NCBI GenBank assembly: GCA_000165345.1
Contig: CM000435.1
Coordinates: 448,001 to 512,000 of the forward strand
Direction: 5' to 3'
Length of the DNA stretch: 64,000 bases
Shown here: one piece after another, positions 255 to 63,932 of the stretch
Layout: each line of letters opens with the position of its first letter
Numbering within the stretch: position 1 is the stretch's first letter
Position numbers and translations under genes: made by a program
Notes under the pieces: model-generated
What the model was told of the DNA's origin: nothing
What the model saw: only the letters and a program-made list of their open reading frames with translations
Database searches by the model: none

Positions 255-265
255 TGGCGCCCAAA
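255..265. promoter_or_regulatory. E2F-like GGCGCC motif (tggcgcccaaa) about 30 nt upstream of ATG 289
   Basis: Rare GC hexamer in an AT-rich intergenic region, same family as the other upstream sites listed. Confidence 0.4.
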
Positions 266-288
266 CAAACAAAAAATTAGTTTTCACA

Positions 289-609
289 ATGTGTGAAAAA
301 AAAGGTTTAAGCCTTCCACCGAAGAACGATGAGCTTAGAAGAGAGGAAAATGAGTCGTTAAAAGGTGAGTCATTAACTCTAAGGCTCAATTTCAAGGATC
401 TGGATGGAATTGTTGAGGAGCTTAGTGTAAATTCTTCTACTGAAGTGGGATTTGTCAAACTTTTGATAGCCAAAAGTAAAAATGTGCAGGCAAAGGATAT
501 TAGAATATTCCACAATGGAAAGAATATGATCAATCCCATGTCTTTGTGTGACCATCCAGGTGTTTCACCTCCTTCAGTTGATGTAGATGTTTATCTTAAT
601 TCAGTATAG
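289..609 (+). CDS. small protein with predicted ubiquitin-like beta-grasp fold (hypothetical); first ATG of ORF 250..609
   Basis: ORF-track frame 250..609, first in-frame ATG at 289. Pattern LTLRLNFKDLDGIVEELSVNSSTEVGFVKLLIAKSKNVQAKDIRIFHNGKNM resembles UBL domains (e.g. TBCB-type), no C-terminal GG. Could be a partial or spliced gene. Confidence 0.3.
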   Translation: MCEKKGLSLPPKNDELRREENESLKGESLTLRLNFKDLDGIVEELSVNSSTEVGFVKLLIAKSKNVQAKDIRIFHNGKNMINPMSLCDHPGVSPPSVDVDVYLNSV

Positions 610-688
610 ACTATTACAAAGAGGTAGGTAATTGACACAAGTCCTATTTTGGGAAAGAAAAACTAATCAATAAGCAGTATTCAATATA

Positions 689-4600: not shown

Positions 4601-4602
4601 CA

Positions 4603-8738: not shown

Positions 8739-8826
8739 TTTTACACTACTTTAATAAAATCTGTGCCTTTTTTTGCTTCAAAATTTTTAGGAAAATTAAA
8801 AAAAAAAAATACAAATAAAAAATATT

Positions 8827-8838
8827 GTGTGCATGCAC
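8827..8838. promoter_or_regulatory. palindrome tgtGCATGCaca about 90 nt upstream of the SAM-like gene ATG (minus strand)
   Basis: Perfect 12-nt palindrome in the 5' flank. Confidence 0.4.
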
Positions 8839-8909
8839 ATGAAATATTTGTATGCGACCCTTGAATATAAAGTAATTATGAAAGTAAAATTTCAACTCAA
8901 CTTTTGCCT

Positions 8910-13290: not shown

Positions 13291-13463
13291 CCTTATGAGG
13301 CTGGCTTTCCTTCTATTTTATTCAGTAACAGAAAAACCTACTCGCAAGACAAGTAAACTCTAATCACGCCTCTACACCTATCTCTAAATCATCTTATTAC
13401 TCGCATTTTCATAGTTATAACTTTTTCACATTCTCTATTTTACGATTTTGACACGAGGGTAAT

Positions 13464-13476
13464 TTTGGCGGGAAAT
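13464..13476. promoter_or_regulatory. canonical E2F site TTTTGGCGGGAAA in the COWP/ALG1 divergent intergenic region
   Basis: Sequence aattttggcgggaaatg, about 85 nt upstream of ALG1 ATG 13559. Confidence 0.55.
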
Positions 13477-13558
13477 GTGCAAGATAGCAAAGACTTTGGT
13501 AAATTTAACGAGTGTGGGACATTAAAAGTTGATATTCAGGATAAGAGAAATATACGGG

Positions 13559-15601
13559 ATGATTCTGTTCGGGATTTTGTTTTGTTTTTTTGTTACGATA
13601 TTCTTTTCAATTTCCTCATTATTCTTTTTGTTATGTTTGGTTATTCGTAGAATTTATATGAGGAGATTAAATAATTATGCGACAACAAGGAATATTGCCG
13701 TTTTAGTTATTGGAGATATAGGTAGGAGTCCAAGGATGCAAAACCATGCTTTGTGTATTTCCAAGAGATTTTGCTCCAAGTTAGATTCTTTGGGGAAAAC
13801 TGGAAAGCTAGTAAATAGAAAGGGGAATAAAGATATTAACCAGAAGCTGGACGACAAAATCAATAATAACCACGTTTATTTGGTTGGATATAATGAAACT
13901 ATTTGTAGTTCAGCTGTGACTGGAGACAAAAATATTACTTTACAAGGTATTGAGAAAACTTTTGTGGAACAATACAGAAAGGTTCTCCCATTGTGGGCTT
14001 TTCTATTCATGAAAGTAGTTGAACAGTCATTGAGGATTTTCATAACAATCATGAAAATTCCAAACCTCTCTGGGATAGTATTACAAGCTCCTCCATCTAT
14101 ACCGGCAATTCCTATTGCTTTGTTAGTTTCTTATATTAAAGGAGCTCATTTAATAATTGACTGGCATAATTATGGTCATACTTTGTTAATAGCCGATAAA
14201 AGAGAGAATAGTCAATTCTCTTTGATCAGGAGAATATACCAACAAATTTTGGTTAATAGTTACAAAATATTAGAGTTCTCGTTAGGAAGACTTTCACATT
14301 CTTCATTTTGTGTTTCTAAAGCCATGCAGGAAGACTTAGCAAAAAGGGGAATTCAAGCAACAGTGGTATATGATAGGCCTAATGATGACTTTAAACCTTT
14401 GGATTCTATCTCAAAGAGACATTCTGTCTTGTTTAAATACTTTGGCAGTTTAGAGAATGAGATTTGTTCTGAGAATTCTAGTTTAGGAGATCAATGCACT
14501 CAAAATACCTTCAATAGAAAGGCTCAAGGAGAAAATAAAAGTAAAACGAAATCCAGAGAAGAGAAAAAATCTGCTCAAAATAACAAGAAAAATAACACAA
14601 AGACAAAAGACGCTTTATTATACGATGAATCTTTGACAAATGTCAAGGATTTGGAATCTGTATCTTTAAATAAATCAGTCTTAGATATGCATCAAATTAG
14701 TGAGAGCATTAATACAAATCTCACAGAACAAGGAAAAGGTTCTGCTAGGACCTCTTTGTTTTCTAAGTCTTTAATAGAGGAAGAATTCTTCTTTGAAATA
14801 GATTCAAGAATCTTGGATGAAATCTCTTCCAACTTCAAAAGTCAGGACTTGAAGGAACTATTAACAAGAGATGATTTATTTTTTGATAATCATATTTTCG
14901 AGACTTCACCTGTAACTGATTTAGGAATTTCTTGCGATCAAATTGATAATAAGATTTCATTAAAGATACAACTCAAGAAGAACAGGCCAGCAGTTTTGAT
15001 AACTTCCACTAGTTGGACTCCTGATGAAGATCTTAACTTATTACTTGAAGGCCTTGTGGAATATGATAAACTTGTTTCAAAACAATTAGGAAACGATAAC
15101 TTATCTAAGAAGCTTCCTGACATATTTCTTATCATTACAGGTAAAGGCCCAAACAAGAATTCATGGTTAGAAAAAGCTTCAAAAACTAAGATGAAACATG
15201 TGAGTATTAGAACAGTCTTTGTTGAAGCTGACGACTATCCAAAGCTGCTAGCTTGTTCAGACTTGGGAATTTCTATGCATTACTCTTCTAGCGGGTTGGA
15301 TCTCCCAATGAAAGTAGTTGATATGCTTGGAGCAGGAATTCCGATAATTTCATTCTCATATCCAACTATTAACGAGCTTTTAAAGAGTGAGAAACTTGAG
15401 TTGTTATTTTCAAACCCTCAAGAGCTTTGTTCTAGAATTACTACTTTACTTGAGGGTTTCAATTCAAGTCTTGAAAAAGAAGCTCTGCCTTCTCCAAATT
15501 TGAACAAGATCCTCAAGTCTAACAACTCAAAGAAAAGAGAAACTTTCTATCAGGAATGGAACAATTCGGCTGTCTATCATTTCGATGAAATGGTAATTTA
15601 A
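13559..15601 (+). CDS. ALG1: ALG1 chitobiosyldiphosphodolichol beta-1,4-mannosyltransferase (GT33) with K/S/N-rich insertion
   Basis: First ATG in ORF frame 13529..15601. N-terminal TM helix, then NIAVLVIGDIGRSPRMQNHA (ALG1 hallmark GDxGRSPRMQ[YN]HA). C-terminal GT-B fold motifs. Low-complexity insert around 14450-14900. Confidence 0.8.
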   Translation: MILFGILFCFFVTIFFSISSLFFLLCLVIRRIYMRRLNNYATTRNIAVLVIGDIGRSPRMQNHALCISKRFCSKLDSLGKTGKLVNRKGNKDINQKLDDKINNNHVYLVGYNETICSSAVTGDKNITLQGIEKTFVEQYRKVLPLWAFLFMKVVEQSLRIFITIMKIPNLSGIVLQAPPSIPAIPIALLVSYIKGAHLIIDWHNYGHTLLIADKRENSQFSLIRRIYQQILVNSYKILEFSLGRLSHSSFCVSKAMQEDLAKRGIQATVVYDRPNDDFKPLDSISKRHSVLFKYFGSLENEICSENSSLGDQCTQNTFNRKAQGENKSKTKSREEKKSAQNNKKNNTKTKDALLYDESLTNVKDLESVSLNKSVLDMHQISESINTNLTEQGKGSARTSLFSKSLIEEEFFFEIDSRILDEISSNFKSQDLKELLTRDDLFFDNHIFETSPVTDLGISCDQIDNKISLKIQLKKNRPAVLITSTSWTPDEDLNLLLEGLVEYDKLVSKQLGNDNLSKKLPDIFLIITGKGPNKNSWLEKASKTKMKHVSIRTVFVEADDYPKLLACSDLGISMHYSSSGLDLPMKVVDMLGAGIPIISFSYPTINELLKSEKLELLFSNPQELCSRITTLLEGFNSSLEKEALPSPNLNKILKSNNSKKRETFYQEWNNSAVYHFDEMVI

Positions 15602-15775
15602 CCTAACCTTAAAAAAGATCTAATTAATGAAAATTTCTGCTTCATTTTGGAAGAATTTGAAAGTCCAGTTAAAATAATAATAAATATGTATTTTTACGAC
15701 AATTAAGAAGTATTATAATAAAGTAATTAGTGCTATAATTAATTAACTAGGTACTTAGGATCAAAAATTACGATT

Positions 15776-16396
15776 TTATTCCTTATACTCGTTCTCTTGA
15801 TCCTCTTCCTCGTCATCATCATCAAAGAATTCTTCCTGTAATCTCTCTTTTAGCTCCAAATATATCTCATTAGTTGCGTCTCCTCTTAGAATATCCTTGA
15901 CAAAGTAGCATACAACTTGCATTTGAAGTTGTTCAAGGGCTCCTCTAATCACTCCACATACCATATTACTATAATTCAATGAAGATGAATAGCAAGGAGG
16001 AAGTTCCACAAAGTCAGCCAAGGGATTTTCATTGAATACTAGAACGCATGAAGTTTCTTCCGGATTCCAATCCTTGGTTTCAGCAGTAATTCCAAGAAAC
16101 ATCTTAAAACCAACACAAGCTATAACCTCTGCTGTATCTCTAAAACTATCACATTTTGAAATACCGGATTTGGCAAGGAATTCATCCACAAGACGAATAC
16201 CAATATTATATCCAATCTTCTCAAGCTTTGAATTAATTAGTTCAGCATTATCAAGATCTTTAACAAATTGAGCAACTAAACTTCCATACATAAGAGAGAA
16301 AACTTCCCCATTAATCTTTTCAGTTTTTTGAAAGGCGAGTTCTCCCATTCTAAGATATTCAGAACGTTTTTTGTACTGATTTGAAGAATTTGACAT
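15776..16396 (-). CDS. BET3: TRAPP complex subunit Bet3/TRAPPC3
   Basis: FSLMYGSLVAQFVKDLDN...IGYNIGIRLVDEFLAKS...FRDTAEVIACVGFKMFLGI...FVELP...SNMVCGVIRGALEQLQM aligns throughout with Bet3. Confidence 0.85.
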   Translation of the reverse strand: MSNSSNQYKKRSEYLRMGELAFQKTEKINGEVFSLMYGSLVAQFVKDLDNAELINSKLEKIGYNIGIRLVDEFLAKSGISKCDSFRDTAEVIACVGFKMFLGITAETKDWNPEETSCVLVFNENPLADFVELPPCYSSSLNYSNMVCGVIRGALEQLQMQVVCYFVKDILRGDATNEIYLELKERLQEEFFDDDDEEEDQENEYKE

Positions 16397-16804
16397 TTCC
16401 TGGAATTAAAAGAAACTATATTTGAGAGTTAATCAGAGTCAAATTAGGCGCAAAACCAAGGTAAAGTAAAAAAAGGACATTATCAGCAATAATTTGAGAA
16501 AAAATAAAAAAGACCTAAAATTCAGAAATTTCTAGACAACTAGGATTAAAAAAGGGATATATTTCTGATTCCTTTTATGAAAAAAATATTGTAAAACTTT
16601 TAGTAGGAAAGAAATATAATAAACTTAGTTATACAACATTTCCGTCCTACCTCCAAATCAAGAGAATTAAAGTATTGAGTCGAAATAATAAGAAGTCAAC
16701 AAAATATAATAAACAGGGAATGCAATTTCGACCTTCTGTTTAATTAATATCTATTAGATGCGAGCGATTAAAAATTTCAATGATTAAAATGAGGGGTACA
16801 TAAG

Positions 16805-16818
16805 TTTGGGCGCCAAAT
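16805..16818. promoter_or_regulatory. palindromic E2F site TTTGGGCGCCAAAT in the Bet3/USP divergent promoter
   Basis: Sequence aagtttgggcgccaaatac, about 50 nt 5' of USP ATG. Confidence 0.55.
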
Positions 16819-16863
16819 ACTGTGGGTACTTTTTTGTTTTTAGGTATCTTCAACATTGCAAAA

Positions 16864-18828
16864 ATGTTCCGTAATAAATCGTTTTTGAAATTCTGTTTCT
16901 TATATATTTTATATTTTTTCACCTTTTATTTTTCGATGGTTGTTACAATATCTTTAAGAAGTCCAAGCAACTCAGGAAAGAAATTGGACTTGGAAAGTTT
17001 AAAGGAAAGTCTTGTTAAGGGTGGTCAGGACCACATTTTAAATTTGTTGGAGTCTGGCGATTCTGATAATGTAAATAGACTAATTTCTCAGTTAATGACT
17101 TTGGAAACTTCGTGTGTGGGTGGTGGGTTACTTGGATATATTAACAGAGCTAAGAAGTTATTGAAAGACTCAAAGGACGGTGTTAATCCAAGAGAAGGGT
17201 GTTATCCTGAGGTTCCAGAGGTAGTTAACTTAGATGTTGGTACTGAAGACTTTAAAAAATATGAGGAGCACGGCTTTTCTGTCCTAAAAAATGTTGCCTT
17301 TGTTTTGGTAGCTGGCGGTTTGGGTGAAAGACTTGCATTTGAGGGAATAAAAATAGGAATCGAGCTGTCAATGGCTTCCAACATCACATTTTTCCAGTTA
17401 TACACAAACTATATCAGGGAGTATCAGAGAAGGTTGAAGGAGGCTTTCGGAGAAGATATTGTAATTCCTTTGCTTATCATGACATCTGATGATACTGACA
17501 GTATGACTAGAAAGTTTTTGGAAGAAAATGATCATTTTGGCTTGAGAGAGGACCAGGTGTATATAGTAAAACAACTCAAGGTCCCTGCTTTGATAGATTC
17601 TGATGCAAAGATTGCATTGGATCCTGAAGACAAATACTCAATCTTAACAAAGCCTCATGGCCACGGAGATATTCACACTTTGCTCCATGCTTCAGGACTT
17701 TTGAAGGATCTTTTTGAGAAAGGAGTAAGATTTTTGGTTTTCATCCAAGATACAAATGCTTTAGTTTTTAATTCAGTACTTCCAGTATTGGGAGTTACAT
17801 CAATGAATTCATTCGTGATGAATAGTTTGACAATTCCCCGTATTCCATGCGAGGCAGTTGGCGCTTTGTGTAAGCTCAGATATCCAGATGGAAAGAAAAT
17901 TACTATTAATACAGAATATAACCAGCTCACTCCTTTACTCAAGAGCTGCGGTTTAGGATCAGATTTTGCTGATGAAAAGACAGGATACTCTCCTTTCCCT
18001 GGAAATTCGAACGTCTTGTTCATTTCAATGGATTACTATATGAAGACCTTGGAAAAGACTGGGGGAGTTGTACCTGAATTTGTGAACCCTAAGTATTTGG
18101 ACTCAACTAAAACAGCATTCAAAAGCCCAACTCGTTTAGAATGTATGATGCAAGATATTCCACTCTTATTTGAGGCTGATTACAAGGTTGGATGCGTGCA
18201 AATGCAGAGATGGGCTACATTCTCTGCTTGCAAGAATAGCTTGGCCGAGGGAAGAGCAAAACATAGTGCAGGAGTCTCCATAGATACCGCCTCTATAACA
18301 GAAGGCGACTTCTATGCAGCTGCCTCACAATATTTGAGATTGGCATCAATTGAAAAGGGTGTAGTTTGTAGAATTGAGGAGAGTGGAAGGGATCCAGTCA
18401 CTGGAAAGGATGATAAGAACTCTCTAATCAAACACGAAATGATCGCCGGAATTCCAGTCAGAGTTGGAGCAATGGTTGTTTTGCACCCTTCATTCGCAAT
18501 TAAGTATTCTGATCTTCTCCAAAGGATTCAGGCTGGTCCTATTATTATTACAAGTAGATCCTATGTGCATTTAGAAGGAGATGTGGTGATCAGTGGAAAA
18601 TTCTTTGTAGACGGTTCAGTTAGAATTGTGGCAAAGAACGGCTCAAGGATTATTATTAAGAATCTCATTGTTAACAATAATGGAACCACTAGATATCATA
18701 TTTCTGAGCAGGATATGGGACATGCAACCAGCAATCAAAAAATCAGAGGATATGGAATTAGACACGAGCAAATAAGGGAAATTATCTCGGATAACGGAGA
18801 AGAAGTTATTATCGACGATCAAAACTGA
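16864..18828 (+). CDS. USP: UDP-sugar pyrophosphorylase (USP, plant/Leishmania type)
   Basis: FVLVAGGLGERLAFEGIKIGIE signature, plus nucleotidyltransferase core and C-terminal left-handed beta-helix. First ATG 16864. Alternative start at 16936 (MVVTISL) is possible. Confidence 0.75.
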   Translation: MFRNKSFLKFCFLYILYFFTFYFSMVVTISLRSPSNSGKKLDLESLKESLVKGGQDHILNLLESGDSDNVNRLISQLMTLETSCVGGGLLGYINRAKKLLKDSKDGVNPREGCYPEVPEVVNLDVGTEDFKKYEEHGFSVLKNVAFVLVAGGLGERLAFEGIKIGIELSMASNITFFQLYTNYIREYQRRLKEAFGEDIVIPLLIMTSDDTDSMTRKFLEENDHFGLREDQVYIVKQLKVPALIDSDAKIALDPEDKYSILTKPHGHGDIHTLLHASGLLKDLFEKGVRFLVFIQDTNALVFNSVLPVLGVTSMNSFVMNSLTIPRIPCEAVGALCKLRYPDGKKITINTEYNQLTPLLKSCGLGSDFADEKTGYSPFPGNSNVLFISMDYYMKTLEKTGGVVPEFVNPKYLDSTKTAFKSPTRLECMMQDIPLLFEADYKVGCVQMQRWATFSACKNSLAEGRAKHSAGVSIDTASITEGDFYAAASQYLRLASIEKGVVCRIEESGRDPVTGKDDKNSLIKHEMIAGIPVRVGAMVVLHPSFAIKYSDLLQRIQAGPIIITSRSYVHLEGDVVISGKFFVDGSVRIVAKNGSRIIIKNLIVNNNGTTRYHISEQDMGHATSNQKIRGYGIRHEQIREIISDNGEEVIIDDQN

Positions 18829-18913
18829 ATAAATTTAATCTCACGCATATTTTTAGTACTTTTTTTAAAATTATTATTAGTTTTGTTTAATTTTTAATGT
18901 AAATTAAGACATT

Positions 18914-18926
18914 TTTGCATGCAAAA
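18914..18926. promoter_or_regulatory. TTTGCATGCAAAA palindrome upstream of CDPK
   Basis: GCATGC core 18917-18922. Confidence 0.4.
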
Positions 18927-18960
18927 TTCCCCCCTCATAATATAATTTTTACCCTTCAAG

Positions 18961-18985
18961 TGCCCGCCCATTTTTGGCGGGCAAA
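18961..18985. promoter_or_regulatory. inverted-repeat E2F-like element TGCCCGCCcatttttGGCGGGCA about 100 nt 5' of CDPK
   Basis: Two GGCGGG cores in opposite orientation around a T-rich spacer. Confidence 0.5.
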
Positions 18986-19082
18986 CACATTAATGCAGAT
19001 TTATCCATGGAAACGTATTTCTTAGGAAAAAAGTAAATTTGTCAGGAATAAAGTACAAGTCATGTAAAAAACCCAAAAAAGC

Positions 19083-21113
19083 ATGGTTTTGATATCATGG
19101 GAATGTGTGTGTGATCTGACACATCCTGGACAGTCTTTGTATGTGGTAGGGAGCCACCCAAGACTGGGAGCTTGGAAGATTACAACTGAGCAAGAGGAAA
19201 ATAAGCCTATTCGACTTATTACTGACAAACTTTCCTATCCAGTCTGGAGGACAAGCGAGCCTATTAGGATTCGAGGTGCATGTCTTTTAGAGTATAAGTT
19301 TATTATTAGTAAGGAAACTGAACCGTACGAGAATCTAGAGTGGGAGCCAATTCAAGGAAACCGATACTTACAAGTCGACGAGAATTTTCCAGAATATAAG
19401 TATATTATTCATTGTAGTTGGGGAAATATTTCTAAAAGCACGATAAGGTTTGAAGAATATTTCGGTAATGATGGCAAAGTTGATGATTACTCATATAGAG
19501 CAAAGCCTGGAGCAAGGTATATTTCACCGGAAAATGCAGAAATATATTCTGAGGAGGATGAAGAACCTAAAGACAGAGGTGCTTATGAAAGCTCTGTAAC
19601 ACCTCCGCTAATGTTGAGTAGGACAGGGTCCAGATTAAGACTTCTATTGGACAGATCCAGATTTATTTTGAGCACCAAAGGTGACATCAACCAATATTAT
19701 ACTTTGGAAAATACTATAGGAAGGGGTTCTTGGGGTGAGGTAAAAATAGCTGTCCAGAAAGGAACCAGAATTCGTAGGGCAGCAAAAAAGATTCCAAAGT
19801 ACTTTGTTGAAGATGTTGATCGTTTTAAACAGGAAATCGAAATTATGAAGTCTTTGGATCATCCAAACATAATTAGGCTATACGAAACTTTTGAAGATAA
19901 TACTGATATATATTTGGTTATGGAACTATGTACTGGAGGAGAGCTTTTTGAAAGAGTTGTACACAAGAGAGTTTTCAGAGAAAGCGATGCTGCAAGAATT
20001 ATGAAAGATGTTTTAAGCGCTGTAGCTTATTGCCATAAGTTAAATGTGGCTCATAGGGATTTGAAACCTGAGAATTTCCTTTTCTTGACAGATTCTCCAG
20101 ATTCTCCCTTAAAATTGATTGACTTTGGCTTGGCAGCTAGATTCAAGCCTGGAAAAATGATGAGGACAAAGGTTGGAACTCCATATTATGTGAGCCCGCA
20201 GGTTTTGGAAGGTCTTTATGGCCCAGAGTGTGATGAATGGTCAGCAGGAGTAATGATGTACGTTTTGCTTTGTGGCTACCCTCCTTTCAGTGCACCTACA
20301 GATTCTGAGGTAATGCTTAAGATCAGAGAAGGAACATTTACATTTCCAGAAAAAGACTGGCTTAATGTTTCTCCTCAGGCAGAATCTTTAATAAGGAGGC
20401 TGTTGACAAAGTCTCCAAAACAAAGAATTACTTCTTTGCAAGCATTAGAACATGAGTGGTTTGAGAAACAACTTTCTTCATCTCCAAGGAACTTATTGCT
20501 AGATAATGTAATCTCTAACTTTAGAAGGTTCCAGGGCCTTTCAAGATTAAAAAAGATTGCTTTAACATTAATAGCTCAAAACATTGATGAAAGAGATATC
20601 CTAGATTTACACGACACATTTATGGAATTGGATACAAGTAGAGATGGAACGCTGAGCAGAGCCGAGATCATTGAAGGAATTAATAGAACAGGTTGTAGTC
20701 CAACAATTGGGATCGATGCTCTTCTTGACGAAATTGATCCTGAAGGTACTGATACTATTTCTTATACAGACTTTATTGCAGCTTGCATTCAAGAGCGGCA
20801 AATGTCCCATGAAAGTGCATGCAAAGCGGCATTTAGAGTATTTGACATTGATGGAGATGGACAGATTAGTAATATAGAATTTCTCAAGGTCATGTCTCTT
20901 TCTAGTAAGGCTAAAAAATCAGACGATGAACTAGCTCAAGAACTGAGCGAATTTATGAAATCAGGAGATTTAGATAAGGATGGAACGATTAATTTCGATG
21001 AGTTCTGCCATGTGATGAGAAGAGTCCCATCCAAATTTCTCCTTGGGGAGGCTTCTGATGACACAATAAATATGATGAAAAGATGTTCCTCTAGAACTAA
21101 CATTAATTTATAG
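19083..21113 (+). CDS. CDPK: calcium-dependent protein kinase with N-terminal CBM20 starch-binding domain and 4 C-terminal EF hands
   Basis: CBM20-like N-terminus (LYVVGSHPRLGAWK...EYKF), Ser/Thr kinase core (HRDLKPENFLF, DFGLA, GTPYYVSPQVL), EF hands DTSRDGTLS, DPEGTDTIS, DIDGDGQIS, DLDKDGTIN. Confidence 0.9.
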   Translation: MVLISWECVCDLTHPGQSLYVVGSHPRLGAWKITTEQEENKPIRLITDKLSYPVWRTSEPIRIRGACLLEYKFIISKETEPYENLEWEPIQGNRYLQVDENFPEYKYIIHCSWGNISKSTIRFEEYFGNDGKVDDYSYRAKPGARYISPENAEIYSEEDEEPKDRGAYESSVTPPLMLSRTGSRLRLLLDRSRFILSTKGDINQYYTLENTIGRGSWGEVKIAVQKGTRIRRAAKKIPKYFVEDVDRFKQEIEIMKSLDHPNIIRLYETFEDNTDIYLVMELCTGGELFERVVHKRVFRESDAARIMKDVLSAVAYCHKLNVAHRDLKPENFLFLTDSPDSPLKLIDFGLAARFKPGKMMRTKVGTPYYVSPQVLEGLYGPECDEWSAGVMMYVLLCGYPPFSAPTDSEVMLKIREGTFTFPEKDWLNVSPQAESLIRRLLTKSPKQRITSLQALEHEWFEKQLSSSPRNLLLDNVISNFRRFQGLSRLKKIALTLIAQNIDERDILDLHDTFMELDTSRDGTLSRAEIIEGINRTGCSPTIGIDALLDEIDPEGTDTISYTDFIAACIQERQMSHESACKAAFRVFDIDGDGQISNIEFLKVMSLSSKAKKSDDELAQELSEFMKSGDLDKDGTINFDEFCHVMRRVPSKFLLGEASDDTINMMKRCSSRTNINL

Positions 21114-21257
21114 TCTACTTTTTAGTATTAACTAATACTATTACGGGCTACTAAGTAGAAAAGGACTAGGAGGCCTTAGTTTTGATGGTTATATTTGGTG
21201 CATTATTTCTATGTGTATTCATTAATTGTATATAATTAAAGTTTACTTAACTCAGAA

Positions 21258-24200
21258 TTAGGCATTTTCCAGGATATTTTCATCTCCTGCACCTTCTTCT
21301 GCCTTTTCTCTGTCTCTATGAACGGAGGTTTTGCTTTTAACATCAGAAGAATAGTTACCCGGTATAATTGAGACAGATTTAGTAATGTCAAATGTTTTGT
21401 AAATCCCGACGAGCCTATCAGCCATTTCGAACATATGGTTTCTGAGAGAAACAACGATAAACTGAGCATTCTTGGTTTTCTCTTTAATGAATGTTGCGAT
21501 AATACTAACATTTCTAAAGTCCAGGGCTGCATCTACCTCGTCCATAAAATAGAGTGGCGACGGCCTAAATTGGTGTAGGGCAAATACTAGGGCAAGGGAA
21601 CTTAGGGTTTTTTCTCCTCCAGAAAGGTTATGAATGGGTCTCCAACTCTTTTTTGGTGGCCTTACTGAGAAAATTATACCGTCAGAAAATGGATCCACAC
21701 TATCAATCAATTCCAATTCAGCATCTCCACCAAGGGTAATCATCTGGTAAATTTCCTTAAGTTGAGATGCAATAATTTTGAAGCCAGAAATAAACTCAGA
21801 ATGTCTGGCCTGCCTTACAGTTTCAAGGTGTCTCCTGCTTTCATCTCTAGCATTAGTTGCTTCTTCAACTTCTTGGTTTCTTCTATTAAAGAGTTGGAGC
21901 TGACTAGAATACTGGGAGAAGATATCTGAGGAAGGTCTGAATTGTTTTACGGAGCCTTCATTTGAATATTGCTCACAAATTGCCTGGAGCTGTGCCTGCA
22001 AAGACTCAATATGCGGCTTAAGTTTTTTAGAAGTCATATCACCAAGTATTTTCTCATATTCGGCATCCTGAACATCCTGAATAAGGAATTTGCTCTTTAA
22101 AGACTCTAATTCAGAATTTTTTTCTGGCGCTGGTTGCTCACTCTTTTCAGGTTCTATTTCCGGAATAGATGGAATACAAGATGCATCTGCTCTGACCTTT
22201 TGGAGCTTTTTTTGTAGTTGCTTTATATTTTGACTTTCAACTTCAGAGATTTTTGCAGAAATCTCATTCAGTTTGTTGGATATCTCTACATCACGGAGCT
22301 CAAGTTTTTCAATTTCCCTTTCAATCTCTTCAAATCTAGCTTGGAATGAACTGTGTTCATTTAAAAATGAGTTCAACTCCTCTTCAGCGAGTTTCTTGCT
22401 TTCCATAATCTTCAGTGCGACTTCTTCAAGTGAAACAAGCTCAGATTCTGTCTTATCAATCGCTTCCTTAAGAGCCTTGGACTTATTTTCAAACTGTTCA
22501 ATGGATTCGATGGCCTTAAGTTTCTTTTTCTCAGACAAAGTAATTTCTACCTGGCTCTTGCTGATTTCACTTTCCAGAGCTCCAATAGTTTTTGTAAGTT
22601 CCTGAACAAGTTCAGATTGTTTCTTCATTTCTGGGCCTCCAATTTCGTTCATCTCATTTGTGAGGCGATCTACAACAATTTGCTTTTGCTTCAAAGAAGC
22701 TTCTAGGGTAGAGATTTGTTTTTTCAACCCCTCAATTTCAGATTCTAATCTTGAGATTTCTGCCATAATCTCTGTCTGATTACTAGGAGATTCTTGGCCA
22801 GTTTTGGACTGAATCTCAGATCTAGACTTTTCAGTCTCTTCTATTGAAGCAAGTTCAATCTTGATTTTCTCAAGGGTAATTGTATAGCCATTAATATCAT
22901 TTTTAAGGTTTTGAACATGATCTTCCAAATCCTTGCATTCAGATTTAATTTTATTGCATTTATTTTGACAGGCCTCTAAATCTGTCTCCATTTTTTTAAG
23001 CTGCTCAGGAGTGGGAATTTCTGAAGTCTTTTCCAACTTTTTACCAGCGTGCTTTGCAACAGAAACATTAGGGCCGCCTCCTGTCATTGTTCCACTGGAG
23101 TCGATCAATTCCCCATTAATAGTTACAACTCTCCATCTTTGCTTTCCATTATAGGAAATTTTGGTTGCAATATCGAGGTCATCGACAATTAGAGTGTCCC
23201 TCATTGCAAAATACCAGGCGATCTTGAATTTAGGGTCCTTAAACTTAACAAGATCAAAGAACCTTTTTGACCCTTCTGGAGCTTTAAATGTTTTTTCCAT
23301 ATTTTGTATTAGAGTAGCAGAAAGTTTTTCCAAGATAATACACGAGATCCTGCCCAAATTTGATTTTCTCACATAATTAACAACTTCTTGTGCATCTTCA
23401 GTAGTCTGCACAACGATGTTTTCAACCTGCGGCACTGAGGAGGCCAGAGCAAGTTGGAATTTGTCATCCACCTGACCCAAATCCCCCAGTCTTCCGTGTA
23501 CTCCACTTTTTTTATTTGCAGAAAAATATTTCATAACAGTTTCTGATAATGACATCTTGGGACCTTTTTGCTTTGATTCAGAAACAACCTTAGTTTCTAA
23601 GTGATTATTTGAAGCTAAAAGGCTTCTTGCTTCATCTAACTCGACCTTTTTTATACCTAGAAGTCTGGTATTCTCACTTAGATCTTTCTGTAGCTGTTCA
23701 AGCTTCTTAGATTTTTCATCAAGAAGAGCCTTACTGTCCTTTAGATTCTTAGAAAAATCCTTATTTTGCTTATTTAGAGCTTGAATCCTTTTAACAGTAT
23801 TTTCTTTCTCCCTCTTACTATTTTCTTCGTTTTCCTGTTTTTGAATCTGCCTTTGTTTCAACATATCCAATTCAATATTTAACATATCATGAGATTGTTG
23901 GAGATCTAAAAGCTTCTTTTGTAGTGGCGATAGCTCCTGCTCCGCCTTATCCTTCTTCTTTCTAGACTCTTCAATCCCATCCTTAACATTCTTCTGCAAC
24001 AATTCCAGCTTCTCCTGAGCAGAGTCGAGGTCCTTCGAGATCTTTGGGAGTTGCTTTTGTTTCTTTCGAACTTCATCTTCCAAATCAACGATTTTTTGCT
24101 CTAACTCTGGTATAAGTTTTTTTTCACCTTCCGCTGATTCCTCAAGTTTCAAAAGTCTTTTTTTTGAATTCTTTAAAGTGGCTCTCAGTTCCTCATCCTT

Positions 24201-25211: not shown

Positions 25212-25304
25212 GTAATAAAAACATTTCAAACTCCCTTGAAGTCTATTTACTTTATTCAACCTCTTTTCTCCCAACTTTATCTGTTTACAATTGTGTGGGG
25301 GAAT

Positions 25305-25318
25305 ATTGGCGGGAAAAC
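25305..25318. promoter_or_regulatory. E2F site (minus-strand reading GTTTTCCCGCCAAT) about 95 nt upstream of SMC4 ATG
   Basis: Sequence attggcgggaaaac. Confidence 0.55.
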
Positions 25319-25460
25319 ATGCATAATGGGGAGCAACTGCAGGCAATAAAAGCCGGTACTAATGAAAAAGGCAGGTAATAAGAAAAAAAAATGAGGCATG
25401 TAAATTACACATATAATATAAGCTACCCAGCTACCTGGATCCTTTAGTAAAAATGTAATG

Positions 25461-26072: not shown

Positions 26073-26448
26073 AGGTATCTATACAAGTAACTAAATTTGA
26101 AAATCTTGTTAATTACTTATTCGCCTATATTTTTTTAATTTACCACTACTTTTTTTTTAATAATATTTTATTTTTTTCGGGTACTTATTGGCATGGTATT
26201 CTCAACTACACACATAAAACTCTTAATTTTATACTTTTTTTTTCCTTTACGTTACCCGCAAAACGAGACAAGATCACAAAAAAATAAAAATGTCAGGCGG
26301 CCATCAACTTTTATTCAGCGGCAACATATTTGGACCAATTCAGTGCGCGGCAATTTCTCGAGACGTAGTAAATTAAAGAATCAAGGTTCAAAAGTTTTGA
26401 ATTTTTCCAATTATAACAAAAAATTCTTGATTCATATAATTAGGGAAA

Positions 26449-26830: not shown

Positions 26831-27101
26831 ACACTTTAGTATATTAGAAATTCTTTATTAGTCGGATGCTTTTGAATCTGACCCATAGTTTTAAGATAAT
26901 AGGTCCCTTCTAATCTTTTGTATTTCTAAGGACTCGGTTTCTGTTCATAAGTAACTAACGTATTCTACCCTAATCATATTTATATTCAGCTTTAAGGGGG
27001 GAACTCAGTACAGAGACAACTTAGGTGAACTTAAAGAAGTTAATTTATTGTGACAAAATGCTAACAAACCAAAACATTGTTAATATTCAGAAAACTAACA
27101 G

Positions 27102-39726: not shown

Positions 39727-39760
39727 TTTTGGCGAAAATCTTTATTTTCTCGTTTTCGCC
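39727..39760. promoter_or_regulatory. inverted repeat TTTTGGCGAAAA-(14 nt)-TTTTCGCC, 15-45 nt 5' of Spt16 ATG
   Basis: ggcgaaaatctttattttctcgttttcgcc. E2F half-site-like arms. Confidence 0.4.
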
Positions 39761-40170
39761 TTTTTACTTTCCAGTCTCTGGTTATCTTCTGAATTGTACC
39801 TCTTAACAAAACCCCACTTTCACAGCGCCTAATAATTAATTATTTGTATAGTACAAGTAAATTGAATTATTCACTTTGATTTACGTATTGGAATTTTAGG
39901 AGAAAATATTACTAAGAATTTGAAAAAAATATGTATTCTGGCCTAAAATAATTATTTTTAATAATCTCAAGCCTTGAATTGCGAATCTATGAATATTTGT
40001 AAAATAATTACTACCGGCAATTCATTTTCTTGTCTCCAAAATGCATGCTTCAATTCCTTCTATATCTATGTTTTTTTATATGGTTAGAATAATAAATGAT
40101 AACAAATTTAATGTTCAAGACTTAATATTAAACTATTCTAAAAAAAATTATCAACTATAACGATAAAGTT

Positions 40171-41865: not shown

Positions 41866-42194
41866 TTTTGGGACGCCAAGTTCCACTTAAAATATCAGTT
41901 ACTTTACCTATTAAACACACAAATCTACAATTCCCGCTACTACTTTAATTCCTTACTTTTCTATTATGTCATTAGTCTTTTGAACAAATATTTTTTTATT
42001 GACTTTAAGTATACGTCTACAAAATGTCCATATTAGAAATATGTTAATATAAGAAAAAGAATACAGAATAACAAATAAATCTTTACTAGAATGACTTAAA
42101 ATACAAGGATAAACAATTATAAATGAGTAGTACAACATATCTTGCTGCTAATCTTCACTCCAGTTTTTACCTTGTCACCATTATTATAATTTTT

Positions 42195-42218
42195 GCATGC
42201 ACACACTTTTGGCGGCAA
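42195..42218. promoter_or_regulatory. GCATGC followed by E2F-like TTTTGGCGGCAA in the divergent promoter of 40171..41865 and COQ10-like
   Basis: tttgcatgcacacacttttggcggcaact. Confidence 0.45.
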
Positions 42219-44951: not shown

Positions 44952-45238
44952 TTATTTTCAGATTGCATCTATACTACTTCTTAGTTAGGTCCAGTTTAAT
45001 ACTGGGTAATTCTTATAATGAATTACTTTTGAAATTGTACAGCATACAGAACTTAAGCTCCAGTAGTCTTTTACCGTAACTTAGCCGGAAACTTGTACTT
45101 AAAAAAATCCGTTCTCTGATTACTCAAACAAAAACACTCCTTTATATTAATATTTTTTTCCGCCTCGATATTCAATTTCCCAAAGAAGACATGTAATACA
45201 CATACGCATGCCTAAGTGCTAGCAATTTTATTAAATTT

Positions 45239-45413: not shown

Positions 45414-45445
45414 AATTTCCCGCCTCCTTTTATAGATTTGCATGC
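45414..45445. promoter_or_regulatory. E2F-like TTTCCCGCC followed by GCATGC, 5' of the mucin-like gene
   Basis: atttcccgcctccttttatagatttgcatgc. Confidence 0.4.
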
Positions 45446-45646
45446 ACCTAGAAGTACTAATTAAAGAAAACTACTTATTTGTCAAAACGAGAGATAAGTG
45501 GAAAGTAATTCTAGGATTAGAACTTAAGTAGTTTTGTTTGATCGACTATAGTAGGTTTTAAAACTAGACTTTGAATCAAATTATTTTACAATTTTGGATA
45601 CTTTGCGTGTGCAACAATACTAATTCATTAATATATTAGCTAAGCT

Positions 45647-47380: not shown

Positions 47381-47408
47381 ATGCGCACCCCCCCACCACG
47401 TGGGGACT
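47381..47408. promoter_or_regulatory. GC-rich island with CACGTG (ccaCCACGTGGgga) in the NPL4/gamma-tubulin divergent promoter
   Basis: atgcgcacccccccaccacgtggggactgaggctcgac. Unusually GC-rich for this intergenic DNA. Confidence 0.4.
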
Positions 47409-47620
47409 GAGGCTCGACAAGTTTTTAATACAAAAGTCGCTAAAAAAGTGAAATTCAATAGTTAATAGCAACATCGAATTAATTTCAATTTGGTTACAAA
47501 GATACAGCAGTTTTACATCTTAATAGCAGGATCCGAAAGACTCAGCCGAATTTTTAGCCAAATTTGTGCTTATTTGGTACAGAAGATATTTAATTAACTA
47601 AGTATAAACTTTAATTAAAG

Positions 47621-49956: not shown

Positions 49957-49995
49957 AACCCGCCCATGCATCGAGCGCCGTACTTGTGGCGGTAT
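49957..49995. promoter_or_regulatory. GC-rich element (CCCGCCCATGCATCGAGCGCCG...GTGGCGGTA) between the L7Ae-like gene and the Bub1-like kinase
   Basis: E2F-like GGCGG/GCGCC cores plus ATGCAT. Confidence 0.4.
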
Positions 49996-50202
49996 CTGTG
50001 TACAAATTTGTGGGCTGCAGGATCAGGAAATAAGTAACTTTTTAATAAGAAAAAAACTCAGAAAGTGCACTATAACAGTATTTGGAAAAAAGAGGGCTGG
50101 GAGTTGTTCAGCGTACATAGGAGAAGGTTTGAGATCAGCTTTGTATCTGAAAGGGCCTTCTTGGATAGGTTGCATTTGCTGAATTAATCTAAGCCTTGTA
50201 AG

Positions 50203-52810: not shown

Positions 52811-52840
52811 TGCCGCCATTTGCTGGCGGTAAATGCATGT
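52811..52840. promoter_or_regulatory. inverted repeat TGCCGCCAtttgcTGGCGGTA plus ATGCATG, about 170 nt 5' of the HEAT-repeat gene
   Basis: attgccgccatttgctggcggtaaatgcatg. Confidence 0.45.
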
Positions 52841-55948: not shown

Positions 55949-55960
55949 AGTTGGCGCCAG
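55949..55960. promoter_or_regulatory. E2F-like agTTGGCGCCAg about 200 nt 5' of the reticulon-like gene
   Basis: GGCGCC core. Confidence 0.4.
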
Positions 55961-56965: not shown

Positions 56966-57447
56966 TGATGTTCAATCTACAATCAATTGCCTCTGAAAAA
57001 TAATCAACTTAATAACCCTAATAGAACTTGAGACTATATTTTTAAAGAGAAAGGATGCAAGATCAACCTAGGAAAAAAATTTCTCGTCCCCGGAACGAAT
57101 TGCTAATATGTTGAACAAAGCGACGTCTGAATTAATAACTCTATTAAAATATTAATCAGCGCTTAAATAGTTCATAGATTTCTTTATCGCACTACTTAAT
57201 TAAGAAATATCCATACTGCTAATGGAATACCTCGTCAGTACTTAGTGCTCAGTATTAGTAGTTATGTAAAAGTAAAGTAGTTTCAATTTTCTTTCATATT
57301 TACATTCGACTTCCTAATCGAAGACGTTATCAAAAAACTGTCATGATGGAATTTACTTAAACAAATATAACGTGTCTCGGCTTCTAATTCCCCGCTACTA
57401 AATATTTATTAGTACAAGATCAATGACGAGTGCCTGTGTGCTAGAAA

Positions 57448-57529
57448 GGTGTGGTGACCGAGTGGTTAAGGTGGTGGCCTGCTAAGCCATTGTGCTCTGC
57501 ACGCGCGTGTTCGAATCACGCCCACATCG
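57448..57529 (+). tRNA. trnS-GCU: tRNA-Ser (anticodon GCU), class II with long variable arm
   Basis: Acceptor GGTGTGG/CCACATC (one G-U), D-arm ACC-GAGTGGTTAA-GGT, anticodon stem GTGGC/GCCAT with loop CTGCTAA, variable arm GTGCtctGCAC, T-arm GCGTG-TTCGAAT-CACGC, discriminator G. Confidence 0.9.
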
Positions 57530-57843: not shown

Positions 57844-57855
57844 ATTGGCGCCATA
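57844..57855. promoter_or_regulatory. E2F-like aTTGGCGCCAta about 90 nt 5' of LSm6
   Basis: GGCGCC core. Confidence 0.4.
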
Positions 57856-58195: not shown

Positions 58196-58442
58196 AAAAT
58201 TCTTTCAAGTTACCTTAAATTAAGAAATTGAATGTAAATTGTTAGACTCATCTAAAGCTGACTAGTAAATTATTTAGATAGCTTATTAGAATCCAATGAA
58301 TTTAGGTCCGTTTTTAATCTTTGTTTTTCATATTTTCGGTAATTCGTTTGACGAAAGTCTGGAATTGCGGTTAAAGGGTTTTTGATGCATAAAATCGTTT
58401 TGTTCAGATAAATTACAAGTTTAATTAAGAGAAGCAAAAAAA

Positions 58443-60710: not shown

Positions 60711-63700
60711 ATGAAATTTCCAAAGGACTTAATAGGCTTTTGGATATTATCGTCAATGTTTTTTATCTGTTTTTCATTAGTTTATGGTACTAAAACAGAA
60801 AGCAATGTCAAAAATAGTCTCCCATACTTGGAACTAAACAAAGGAAACAAACAAGGTCTATTGCGACAGCACAGAATGGTGGGAGAATTTTTGGAATGTA
60901 CTTATGTTGAGCATATCGATAAAAATTTACAAGATGGAAAAAATGAGGATTATTATCCAGGAACAGGAATTGATCGAAACAAAAGTAGAGTGGTTTCTTT
61001 GGAATCAATTGATATTTCGAGTAAAATCATCAAAACTTTGGAATGTCAGAAAAAAATTATTGAACGTTGGATGAAAGATATTACTAAAACTTTAAAAGAA
61101 AATTTGTTTTCAGTCATTGAAATAAGGAGCTGGAGAGAAATGACAAGACCAAAAAGCTTGAATGGAGAAGCTGGCGAAATTTTAGCAATTCTAGAGAATA
61201 AAAACTCGAGTCCATTAAATAAAGTTAAAGAGGCTGTGGAGGCATTTGAAAAGTATATAACAGAACTTCACGATGCCTACTCAGAATTCCGAAATTCTGA
61301 AGAAAAGCTGGAATCTGCTTCTACTGAAGAAGAAAAAAGAACCAGAGCACAAGTTGCAGTGTTAATTCTTGGTCAAAAGGAGAACAGAAGTCTGCTTAAA
61401 TTTACAAAGATAATACGCAACAACGCGGACGATGCAAGAGATTCAAAAAAACTTCTTGAGAAACTGTTTCCACTACTTTCTGGTGAAAGCTATAACAACA
61501 GAATTCTTCAAGCTCTGGAGCTTATTCAAATTTGTTTCTTTTTACTTAATGGTTTGAATGTTTTATCCGTATTTGAAGAACAGAGGTTATCTAATAAGTT
61601 CAGAAGGGATATGGAAAGAAGGAATTTAATTTACCAGCACAAAATTGAAAATAAAACTCTTTCAAGGTACCCAAAATTCTCAAACTCACCAAATTTTAAG
61701 GATATATCAAATTTCCTCTTGAGCTCTGTAAATAAATCAAGTGATGCTGAAAGTGAAAATAAAGTAAAAGTTGAATTTATTCAGATGTTTGATGAGATTA
61801 CTCAAGACTTTGGTATTCGTTGTCCATATTTTCTTACTTCAATATTGAGATCCGGAAAAGTTGGTCACTCTTTAAAAGGAGAAGAGTTGTTCGATTTAAA
61901 TGCAGTAAAAAATTGTCGGCTTGCATGGAAGGAAATATCTTCGTATTTATATAAAGAAGGCCAGATTGTTCCTTCAGCTGCAATTAGACAAGCATTGAAG
62001 AAAGCCCTATACAAACATGTTAAGACAGTTTATGTTTGGCCTAGAAATGCTTTAGGACTATTTAAAAGTCTTTTTGATCGTTCTGAATTTGAAAGAGCAT
62101 TTGATACTAGCAATGAAAAGAGATTTATATCCACTTGTTCTGAGGCTATAAATAAAGAAATTGGTCTAGGAACTTCCCATGCAGTTAGTTTGGACGAAAT
62201 TGCAATCATATGTTTTGATTTCTTTAATTTATTAGAGTTTTACACAGATCAGTACAACTACGGAAATCAGGAGAATGTTGGAAGAGATGGAAACACCATT
62301 CTAGCAACTAAAAAGTACGTAAATATTAATACTTTACCATCAAAAATTAAGGCAAAAGCACTGGACGTAGCTTGCTCTAGAACATTAGTTGGATTAATCG
62401 ACTTTCCGCCATTCAAATCTAATGATCTTGACAGAACGGTTATCGGTATTCTAACAACAAATTTTATGGAAACATGTGTTCAACGTATAGAAACTGTTCT
62501 TGGAGAGGCGTCGAAGTATAGAATAAGTAATCCCCAAACAATATGTACAGAAGTTAGAAATATCCTTAAGGACTATAATATGTTGTCTCAAAAGCCTGAA
62601 AATATAGAGGGTTCAATGGATATTTTTGAGCAATTTAATATTCTTGATACATCTATAGTTACAGAAACTTCAAAAGGTGCATCCAAACCCTCGGATAGCA
62701 TTGAATATCTAAAAATGCTTCAAAGTAAGCTTGGTAGCTTACAGCCAAGTTTTCAATCTACCCAAAGTAAAGATATAGGAATTTCCCCAATAAGACAGCT
62801 TGACCCTGTGAAGGCATATAATTTGGTCCGAAAAATGCATTTAGACTGGATGGAGCAAATGAGAAATGATCCAAGATATAAAGGTTTTACAGATTTAGAA
62901 TTGAAAAATAACTCTCCTTGGAACAAACAAATGAAACTTTGGCATGAATTAATCACTCCTGAATTACCTGAAGTTAGATATGCAGCATCATACCTTAACA
63001 ATAGACCTTCTAGATTTCCGTTGATTTCTGGAGATAAGAGAGGAAAACATAAAAAAATCACTCCTTTAGAGGAATTTCTTAATGAGGATTTGGATCCAAA
63101 ATATAGAGCCAGATATCCACTAGTTGAAAATGGTCCGTTCGAAGAACAAGATTTTTATTATGATGACGAATATTATAAACATCCTTATGAAGATTCTATA
63201 GCTGCTGAAGCAGCTCAAACTCGAGAATATTACATTAAAAGGAAAAATGGGAGCTATATAAAGAACGAGAAAGGAAGTTATATTAAAGAAAGAAACGGAA
63301 AGTATGTTAAAATCAATAAAGGAGATTATATTAAAGAAGGGAGAAGAAACTATATTAAAAAAGACGAAGGCTATTATACTAAAAATGGTGAGATAAACCA
63401 GCATTATGCCGCAGTTCCAGTTATCCATGGAGAACAAATCACAGCGCAATTAGTGAGACCCAATAAAGAATATAATATTAAGGCATACCAAACAAGGAAT
63501 AATGCTTTGATTAACTACTCCTATATTGACAATGGATGCAAAGGCGAAGAATTACCTTTACTCTGGGGACAAAGAGCAACCATTTTACATGAAAATATGA
63601 TTAAAGGTTTCAAAATGGTTAAATATAGAGGGAAATATGGGCCAGGACATTTTGTATCTATGGATGATATATGTTATATTTTGGAGAGAGACTTTAAGGT

Positions 63701-63863
63701 GAAAAGAAATTATTTTGAGGATATTTCCAAAGTTAATTTAATGGAATGTCAAAAATGGTTTACAGAATATCTTTCAAAACTCTGGCCGCCATTTAACATG
63801 GAAAGCTTTAAAGCTGATGTAAAAACTTTATGTTGGGATTCTGGATTTAGAGGCTGGTTATAG
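60711..63863 (+). CDS. large secreted hypothetical protein with C-terminal degenerate G-x-YIK repeats
   Basis: Signal peptide MKFPKDLIGFWILSSMFFICFSLVYG, 1050 aa, no recognisable enzyme motif. Confidence 0.5.
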   Translation: MKFPKDLIGFWILSSMFFICFSLVYGTKTESNVKNSLPYLELNKGNKQGLLRQHRMVGEFLECTYVEHIDKNLQDGKNEDYYPGTGIDRNKSRVVSLESIDISSKIIKTLECQKKIIERWMKDITKTLKENLFSVIEIRSWREMTRPKSLNGEAGEILAILENKNSSPLNKVKEAVEAFEKYITELHDAYSEFRNSEEKLESASTEEEKRTRAQVAVLILGQKENRSLLKFTKIIRNNADDARDSKKLLEKLFPLLSGESYNNRILQALELIQICFFLLNGLNVLSVFEEQRLSNKFRRDMERRNLIYQHKIENKTLSRYPKFSNSPNFKDISNFLLSSVNKSSDAESENKVKVEFIQMFDEITQDFGIRCPYFLTSILRSGKVGHSLKGEELFDLNAVKNCRLAWKEISSYLYKEGQIVPSAAIRQALKKALYKHVKTVYVWPRNALGLFKSLFDRSEFERAFDTSNEKRFISTCSEAINKEIGLGTSHAVSLDEIAIICFDFFNLLEFYTDQYNYGNQENVGRDGNTILATKKYVNINTLPSKIKAKALDVACSRTLVGLIDFPPFKSNDLDRTVIGILTTNFMETCVQRIETVLGEASKYRISNPQTICTEVRNILKDYNMLSQKPENIEGSMDIFEQFNILDTSIVTETSKGASKPSDSIEYLKMLQSKLGSLQPSFQSTQSKDIGISPIRQLDPVKAYNLVRKMHLDWMEQMRNDPRYKGFTDLELKNNSPWNKQMKLWHELITPELPEVRYAASYLNNRPSRFPLISGDKRGKHKKITPLEEFLNEDLDPKYRARYPLVENGPFEEQDFYYDDEYYKHPYEDSIAAEAAQTREYYIKRKNGSYIKNEKGSYIKERNGKYVKINKGDYIKEGRRNYIKKDEGYYTKNGEINQHYAAVPVIHGEQITAQLVRPNKEYNIKAYQTRNNALINYSYIDNGCKGEELPLLWGQRATILHENMIKGFKMVKYRGKYGPGHFVSMDDICYILERDFKVKRNYFEDISKVNLMECQKWFTEYLSKLWPPFNMESFKADVKTLCWDSGFRGWL
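63236..63392. repeat. degenerate tandem repeat of about 24-27 nt encoding (K/E)xNGxYIK units
   Basis: KRKNGSYIKNEKGSYIKERNGKYVKINKGDYIKEGRRNYIKKDEGYYTKNG. Confidence 0.6.
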
Positions 63864-63917
63864 GGGAGTTTATTAAATTCTCTAATTTTTTTTTCAAGCA
63901 TGTAAATCCACAATTTG

Positions 63918-63932
63918 TGTTGGCGCCAAATC
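63918..63932. promoter_or_regulatory. palindromic E2F site tgTTGGCGCCAAatc 3' of the secreted-protein gene, probably the promoter of the next gene off-window
   Basis: Perfect TTGGCGCCAA palindrome. Confidence 0.45.

Follow-up and report, generated by a model that had tools for sequence, protein, structure and literature searches.

E2F/DP binding sites consist of a 6-bp CG core with T- and A-rich flanks, and their typical asymmetric forms are TTTCCCGCC and TTTGGCGGG (PMC3734150). Upstream motifs of this 'E2F' family are the commonest promoter element of the parasite Cryptosporidium parvum. They were first noted in the non-coding DNA of chromosome 6 (Bankier et al. 2003), and were named and quantified genome-wide as motifs 3 and 4 (Oberstaller et al. 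2013, PMC3734150). The subject here is a set of TTGGCGCC / TTTGGCGGGAAA boxes present in almost every gene-upstream gap of a 64,000-nucleotide stretch of DNA (contig CM000435.1, positions 448,001 to 512,000), hereafter the window. These boxes belong to that published family: the original prediction, made from the letters of the window, had called them an established Cryptosporidium upstream element, and this is correct and not new. The organism is the same, and so are the words (TGGCGCCA, [C/G]GCGC[G/C] and GGCGGG), the placement upstream of most genes, bidirectional promoters included, and the co-occurrence with TGCATGCA and the G-box. Nothing essential sets the boxes apart, and the window is a local sample of a genome-wide pattern. 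The additions made here are small, namely the conservation of individual sites in C. ubiquitum, C. felis and a further Cryptosporidium relative, and some indication that the strict motif becomes sparser in C. bovis and C. andersoni.

The E2F/DP sites of animals and plants (TTTSSCGC; in Arabidopsis, the two asymmetric forms given above) share with the boxes the core, the T/A flanks, the coexistence of palindromic and asymmetric forms and the promoter-proximal position. They mark, however, a cell-cycle or G1-S regulon under the control of Rb-family pocket proteins, whereas in C. parvum most promoters are marked, no Rb orthologue has been reported and binding is predicted only. The GC box of the Sp1/KLF factors (GGGGCGGGG) is likewise short, CG-containing and promoter-proximal, and is found at many housekeeping promoters. 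It differs in its GGGCGG core and G-rich context: GGGCGG occurs in 2 of the 19 sites analysed here, the flanks of the C. parvum sites are T- and A-runs and not G-runs, and the palindrome GGCGCC is no GC box. The C. parvum genome is reported to contain two (or three) E2F genes and two DP genes (cgd1_1560, cgd6_1430, cgd7_3650 and cgd8_1850; 10.1101/2025.01.17.633476, PMC12246861, PMC4117751), whose protein family is reported to be absent from all other studied apicomplexans (PMC3734150, 10.1101/2025.01.17.633476, PMC12246861, PMC4117751). Of 200 co-expression clusters, 161 carry the motif upstream (PMC4117751). It is also the dominant motif in sporozoite peaks of the assay for transposase-accessible chromatin with sequencing, and has been tied to open chromatin and to the starts of polycistrons (Xiao et al. 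2025, 10.1101/2025.01.17.633476).

In the window as a whole, GGCGCC occurs 7 times and TGGCGSS 19 times, against 1.06 and 2.8 expected from dinucleotide shuffles, and none of 100 shuffles reached either count. To locate these words, a map of 33 genes was built from open reading frames (ORFs), Pfam hits and the gene calls of identical public records, the last of which supplied small or intron-containing genes that an ORF scan alone overlooks (RPL44, GINS Psf3, LSM and a 178-aa gene, together with the 5' exons of three further genes). The map defines 11 convergent 3'-3' gaps and 21 intergenic regions with a gene start on at least one side (11 divergent and 10 tandem, the tandem ones including the 3' untranslated region, UTR, of the preceding gene). 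These 5' regions amount to 8,409 nt (13% of the window), while coding DNA takes up 54,109 nt and the convergent gaps 1,482 nt. The 7 GGCGCC and 9 GGCGGG/CCCGCC words all fall within the 5' regions, and none was found in coding DNA or in the convergent gaps.

The broader word GGCGSS was compared with first-order Markov models specific to each class. It occurs 19 times in the 5' regions, where 1.47 are expected (~13-fold; none of 2000 simulations reached 19), and 5 times in coding DNA, where 5.7 are expected, all 5 being of the weak GGCGGC type. Since coding DNA holds the expected number, the contrast between the classes is an enrichment in promoters and not a codon-driven depletion in genes. 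Altogether, 19 of 24 GGCGSS words and 16 of 16 GGCGCC/GGCGGG words lie in 5' intergenic DNA, which is the location expected of E2F/DP sites. The count by class that had been proposed as a check thus gave unequal densities, and the confinement of the boxes to upstream DNA stands. It had also been claimed that convergent gaps are free of them; the count is indeed zero, but with little statistical power. At 25% GC these gaps should contain 0.03 sites by chance and ~3.3 at the density of the 5' regions (P of zero ~0.035), so that the absence is weak evidence, with only 1.5 kb of such DNA and few sites predicted in it anyway.

A strict site is present in 17 of the 21 5' regions. The near one-per-promoter density of the original prediction is therefore right when counted by promoter region, whereas it falls to ~0.6 sites per gene, because many sites are located in divergent gaps shared by two genes. 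The distance to the nearest correctly oriented ATG ranges from 3 to 468 nt, with a median of 101, and is between 24 and 206 nt for 15 of the 19 sites. In an unbiased screen of 6-, 7- and 8-mers, only pure A/T runs ranked above TTGGCG, GGCGGG, TGGCGC, TGGCGCC, TTGGCGCC and GGCGGGAA in enrichment, and hexamers of the same composition (GGGCCC, GCCGGC, GGCCGG and CCGCGG) are missing from the 5' regions. Inspection of the few asymmetric GGCGGG sites revealed no evident bias in their orientation relative to the nearest gene.

The position matrix of the 19 oriented sites reads TTT-GGCG[G/C][C/G]-AAA, with mostly T at positions -3 to -1 and mostly A at +6 to +8. The core is the palindrome GGCGCC in seven sites, GGCGGG in nine and GGCGGC in three, and inverted pairs occur at two loci, upstream of the CDPK gene and of the TORTIFOLIA-like gene. 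An E2F/DP site would be recognised by a [C/G]GCGC[G/C] or SSCGC core between a T-run and an A-run (TTTSSCGC / TTTSGCGCSAAA), and this is what the boxes display. At the level of sequence, their core and flanks are equal to the E2F/DP consensus as described in PMC3734150.

Syntenic loci were retrieved through homologue searches and contig look-ups from C. ubiquitum, C. felis, C. bovis, C. andersoni and a Cryptosporidium relative represented by a 50.8-kb Logan contig of SRR31860986 (L001). The genes of L001 share ~75% nucleotide identity with those of the window (gamma-tubulin is 94% identical), its locus has a GC content of 44% against 35%, and gene order is the same in all five loci compared. 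Conservation was scored as a perfect hexamer match in pairwise alignments of orthologous 5' intergenic regions, with 6 to 9 promoter regions per species. Motif hexamers are kept in 6 of 8 cases in C. ubiquitum (19% for background intergenic hexamers, p=1e-3), in 5 of 8 in C. felis (background 6.7%, p=6e-5) and in 5 of 6 in the L001 species (background 10.9%, p=9e-5), the sixth L001 site having changed from GGCGCC to GCCGCC, which is still a motif match. The boxes appear as islands of identity in spacers that are ~50% identical, as in the TTTCCCGCC...TTTTATAGATTTGCATGCACC segment at 45416-45450, and ttttCCCGCCaa is found alike in C. parvum, C. ubiquitum and C. felis, both upstream of SMC4 and in the gap between the glycosyltransferase and 1434-aa genes. 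These alignments indicate that the core sites are under purifying selection, as E2F/DP sites should be. The well-conserved sites at 13467, 18963-18981, 25308, 35474, 45419 and 57847 offer clean targets for mutagenesis or as probes.

Promoter-specific enrichment, the E2F/DP consensus and cross-species conservation, all computed here, make it very probable that the boxes are conserved E2F/DP-type cis-regulatory promoter elements, serving as sites of a near-general promoter factor. Each element has a short CG core, either the palindrome GGCGCC or the asymmetric GGCGGG, set between a T-run and an A-run. The intergenic regions of C. parvum are very short, and one or two copies stand in them at ~25-250 nt from the start codon downstream. 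A single site is often placed in a divergent gap, from which it could serve both genes. Heterodimers of the parasite E2F and DP winged-helix proteins are proposed to bind the core and to mark or open the promoter for transcription, at most genes and not at cell-cycle genes alone. The consensus points to E2F/DP as the presumed binder, whose effect would be activation or repression; here the original prediction was right about the match and overstated the link. No E2F/DP gene was detected within the window in Pfam scans. The parasite seems to run most of its promoters through one ancient transcription-factor family that has been lost in all other studied apicomplexans.

Several points weigh against this interpretation. 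A 2025 review states that direct binding of E2F/DP has not been shown and that most Cryptosporidium regulators are without functional validation (PMC12246861), and a search of publications since 2024 found no study of E2F/DP-DNA binding in Cryptosporidium. Nor do the sites appear to favour replication or cell-cycle genes, as the 17 of 21 regions that carry them include those of housekeeping, transport, metabolic and unidentified genes. Replication and cell-cycle genes had been named among the targets, next to housekeeping genes, and the names of the former hold (SMC4, GINS Psf3, SPT16, gamma-tubulin and a Bub1-like kinase, for which all six PDB sequence matches are BUB1 kinase domains). Sites do lie upstream of SMC4, PSF3 and the Bub1-like kinase gene, but the gamma-tubulin/NPL4 divergent promoter has no GGCGSS site, and the 'gamma-tubulin region' that had been listed refers to neighbouring genes. 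An Rb orthologue has not been reported in Cryptosporidium (PMC3734150); for this reason, and because the sites are not restricted to cell-cycle genes, the classical Rb-E2F logic cannot apply unchanged. Site positions, moreover, are relative to ATGs and not to transcription start sites, and annotations disagree on a few start codons (site 4603 is 3 nt or 48 nt away from the ATG of exportin, depending on the annotation). Finally, far fewer strict sites are present at the orthologous promoters of C. bovis and C. andersoni: six such regions contain 8 strict sites in C. parvum, 7 in C. ubiquitum and 7 in C. felis, but 4 in C. bovis and 2 in C. andersoni.

These six regions are the promoters orthologous to window 13291-30352. 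The comparison covers a single 24-kb block in each species, and two genes of the C. andersoni locus were uncalled, so that the thinning in C. bovis and C. andersoni is a lead that could be noise. In C. andersoni only a shorter core, GGCGG, is clearly enriched (8 in 5' regions vs 1 in coding DNA, p=1e-4); it often reads ACCGCC, which is placed at roughly equal distance upstream of SMC4 and CDPK. It is conceivable, though rather doubtful, that saturation of promoters with the strict GGCGCC/GGCGGG box is a derived condition of the intestinal clade (C. parvum, C. ubiquitum and C. felis) and not the ancestral apicomplexan state. If true, the specificity of E2F/DP sites would have turned over or been relaxed within the genus.

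It could be argued that the boxes are functional promoter elements read by some other GC-box factor, such as an Sp1/KLF-like C2H2 zinc finger, a Myb protein or an ApiAP2 domain other than those assayed, and that their likeness to E2F sites is coincidental. The gap in binding evidence noted in the 2025 review (PMC12246861) speaks for this, as do two sites that read GGGCGGG in the manner of a GC box (18963 and 49959), the conservation of the non-canonical variants TGGCGAAAA (39730) and GGCGGT, and the near-ubiquity of the boxes across unrelated genes, which fits a general factor better than a cell-cycle one. The flanks, however, are rich in T 5' of the core and in A 3' of it, not in G, and 7 of the 19 cores are palindromic GGCGCC with TT/AA flanks, which is the site of an E2F/DP dimer and no Sp1 box. 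For the C. parvum AP2 domains tested, protein-binding microarrays gave TGCAT, CACACA and G-box specificities, and the E2F-like motif was assigned to none of them (PMC4117751). E2F and DP genes have been kept in the genus and are expressed at the time when the box-bearing promoters are open (10.1101/2025.01.17.633476). A different reader is thus unlikely.

Even less probable, to the point of being remote, is a role exerted mainly through DNA properties, in which the boxes would be GC islands within AT-rich spacers that place or exclude nucleosomes, or marks of transcript boundaries among polycistrons. The density of about one site per intergenic promoter region, whatever the function of the gene, would suit such a role, as would reports of a single motif per open-chromatin peak and of the motif between genes of polycistrons (10.1101/2025.01.17.633476). 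The exact hexamer is nevertheless conserved while its surroundings diverge, and the control GC hexamers missing from the 5' regions argue that it is the exact sequence that matters, so that GC content alone is ruled out as the cause. The chance that the boxes are an accident or a compositional artefact is negligible. An AT-rich genome uses few GGC and GCC codons, and codon bias removing such words from genes could mimic coding depletion, but this source of the contrast is ruled out by a coding GGCGSS count that equals expectation. Chance is refuted by the Markov simulations, in which the AT-richer 5' regions exceed expectation 13-fold, together with the conservation of the sites across species. 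The E2F/DP-type promoter element therefore remains the favoured reading of the sites collected in the table.

The Cryptosporidium origin of the window was borne out by its 100% identity to CP141124.1 (GCA_035232765.1) over every stretch compared, except for a single gap in one of them. This record is part of the telomere-to-telomere genome of Cryptosporidium parvum IOWA II-BGF (PMC12179316), and the window corresponds by calculation to its positions 488,883-552,882, on chromosome 7 of C. parvum IOWA II. Five proteins encoded in the window were matched exactly to CP141124.1 (1.36 Mb). A homologue search with gamma-tubulin had given no named Cryptosporidium match, the best named one being Cardiosporidium at 69%, but an apicomplexan outside Cryptosporidium was ruled out by these exact matches, the identity over the compared stretches and a search with SMC4. 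The DNA is AT-rich (~35% GC) and compact, with back-to-back genes mostly devoid of introns. Pfam scans identified an exportin, an ARID protein, a glycosyltransferase, a TRAPP subunit, UDPGP, a CBM20-CDPK, an SMC protein, p24, a KH protein, NDH2, gamma-COP, SPT16, NPL4, gamma-tubulin, two kinases, SIR2, Aha1 and a metallophosphoesterase.

All 18 coordinates listed in the original prediction hold the strings described for them, although the list was incomplete, the weak GGCGGC at 26296 (p24/RPL44) having been overlooked. The inverted pair given at 39727, upstream of SPT16, is present as a variant, but it is non-canonical and falls outside GGCGSS. A conserved AGCGCC at 39823-39830 also stands just upstream of the SPT16 ATG. 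This word and the pair may be degenerate E2F-type sites or elements of the 5' UTR.

Table. Box-like sites in the 5' regions of the window, with their position, strand, genomic setting and state in other Cryptosporidium loci
Element	Position	Strand	Setting	Other species
GGCGCC core (gtatGGCGCCcaaa)	256..261		P4-ATPase/ubiquitin-like divergent gap; 27 nt from ubiquitin-like ATG, 81 nt from ATPase ATG	
GGCGGGAAAA	4603..4608	+	Exportin/ARID divergent gap; 3 nt from exportin longest-ORF ATG	
TTTTGGCGGGAAA	13467..13472	+	1434-aa/glycosyltransferase divergent gap	Kept in C. ubiquitum and C. felis
TTTGGGCGCCAAA	16809..16814		TRAPP/UDPGP divergent gap, UDPGP 49 nt downstream	Kept in C. ubiquitum
CCCGCC-N7-GGCGGG inverted pair	18963..18981		101-114 nt upstream of CBM20-CDPK gene	Both halves kept in C. 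ubiquitum, pair in C. felis
ATTGGCGGGAAAA	25308..25313	+	97 nt upstream of minus-strand SMC4	Kept in C. ubiquitum and C. felis
GGCGGC (weak type)	26296..26301	+	p24/RPL44 divergent gap	Kept in C. felis; GGCGGT in C. ubiquitum
ATGGCGGGAA	29838..29843	+	KH/NDH2 divergent gap	Kept in C. ubiquitum and C. felis
TTTTGGCGCCAA	30253..30258		94 nt upstream of NDH2	No motif aligned in C. ubiquitum or C. felis
TTTCCCGCCAAA	35474..35479	-	COPG/PSF3 divergent gap; 50 nt upstream of GINS Psf3	
TGGCGAAAA...TTTTCGCC non-canonical inverted pair	39730..39760		Just upstream of SPT16 ATG; no GGCGSS match	Kept in L001 species
TTTTGGCGGCAA beside GCATGCACACAC	42211..42216	+	564-aa/START-like divergent gap	Kept in L001
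TTTCCCGCC then conserved TTTTATAGATTTGCATGCACC block	45419..45424	-	Upstream of 579-aa gene	Kept in L001
CCCGCCCATGCAT-GAGCGCC-...-TGGCGGTATC cluster	49959..50000		231-aa/Bub1-like kinase divergent gap	Kept as block in L001
TGCCGCCA-N6-TGGCGGTAA inverted pair (GCCGCC-N8-GGCGGT), then TGCATG	52812..52831		Upstream of TORTIFOLIA-like gene	Pair kept in L001
GTTGGCGCCAG	55953..55958		206 nt upstream of 183-aa gene	L001 aligned position GCCGCC
ATTGGCGCCAT	57847..57852		88 nt upstream of LSM gene	Kept in L001
GTTGGCGCCTAAA	60542..60547		Metallophos/1050-aa divergent gap; 163 nt upstream of 1050-aa gene	
GTTGGCGCCAAAT (also written TTGGCGCCAA)	63922..63927		~139 nt upstream of M16 peptidase gene starting just past window end	

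Further published upstream motifs of C. parvum are likewise enriched in the 5' regions. TGCATGCA occurs 5 times in the 5' regions and 3 times in coding DNA (0.59 vs 0.06 per kb), and the G-box G.GGGG 19 times in each (2.26 vs 0.35 per kb). Several of these motifs lie 13-60 nt from an E2F-like box, as at 42190-42216, 45419-45447 and 52812-52840. GCATGC, however, is within 60 nt of 5 of the 19 sites and a G-box within 60 nt of 8 of them, and with so few neighbours the motifs form no fixed composite element.

The divergent promoter of NPL4 and gamma-tubulin harbors a 26-nt block at 47394-47419, CACCACGTGGGGACTGAGGCTCGACA, which is 100% kept in L001 and includes CACGTG and the G-box-like GTGGGG. 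Upstream of the 579-aa gene, at 45147-45215, a block of ~65 nt, TTTTCCGCCTCGATATTC.ATTTCC..AAGAAGACATGTAATACACATACGCATGC, is almost perfectly kept in L001 and starts with a variant box of the GGCGGAAAA type. Two tandem gaps, 8739-8909 (from the 1434-aa to the 178-aa gene, minus strand) and 58196-58442 (from LSM to Aha1, plus strand), contain no GGCG, GCGC or CGCG. As dicistrons have been reported in C. parvum, the genes behind these motif-free gaps are candidates for co-transcription with the upstream gene.

The longest intergenic region of the window, with 975 nt, is that between SIR2 and LSM. A block of ~150 nt within it (57108-57255) is ~85% identical in L001, while the surrounding spacer is ~50% identical. 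It matches no Rfam family and has no ORF of at least 25 aa, and folding of its two strands gave no significant structure (z = -0.5 and -1.3). The block could be a small RNA missing from the annotation or an extended regulatory element. The same region contains a tRNA-Ser (anticodon GCT) at 57448-57529 on the plus strand, which is 100% identical in L001.

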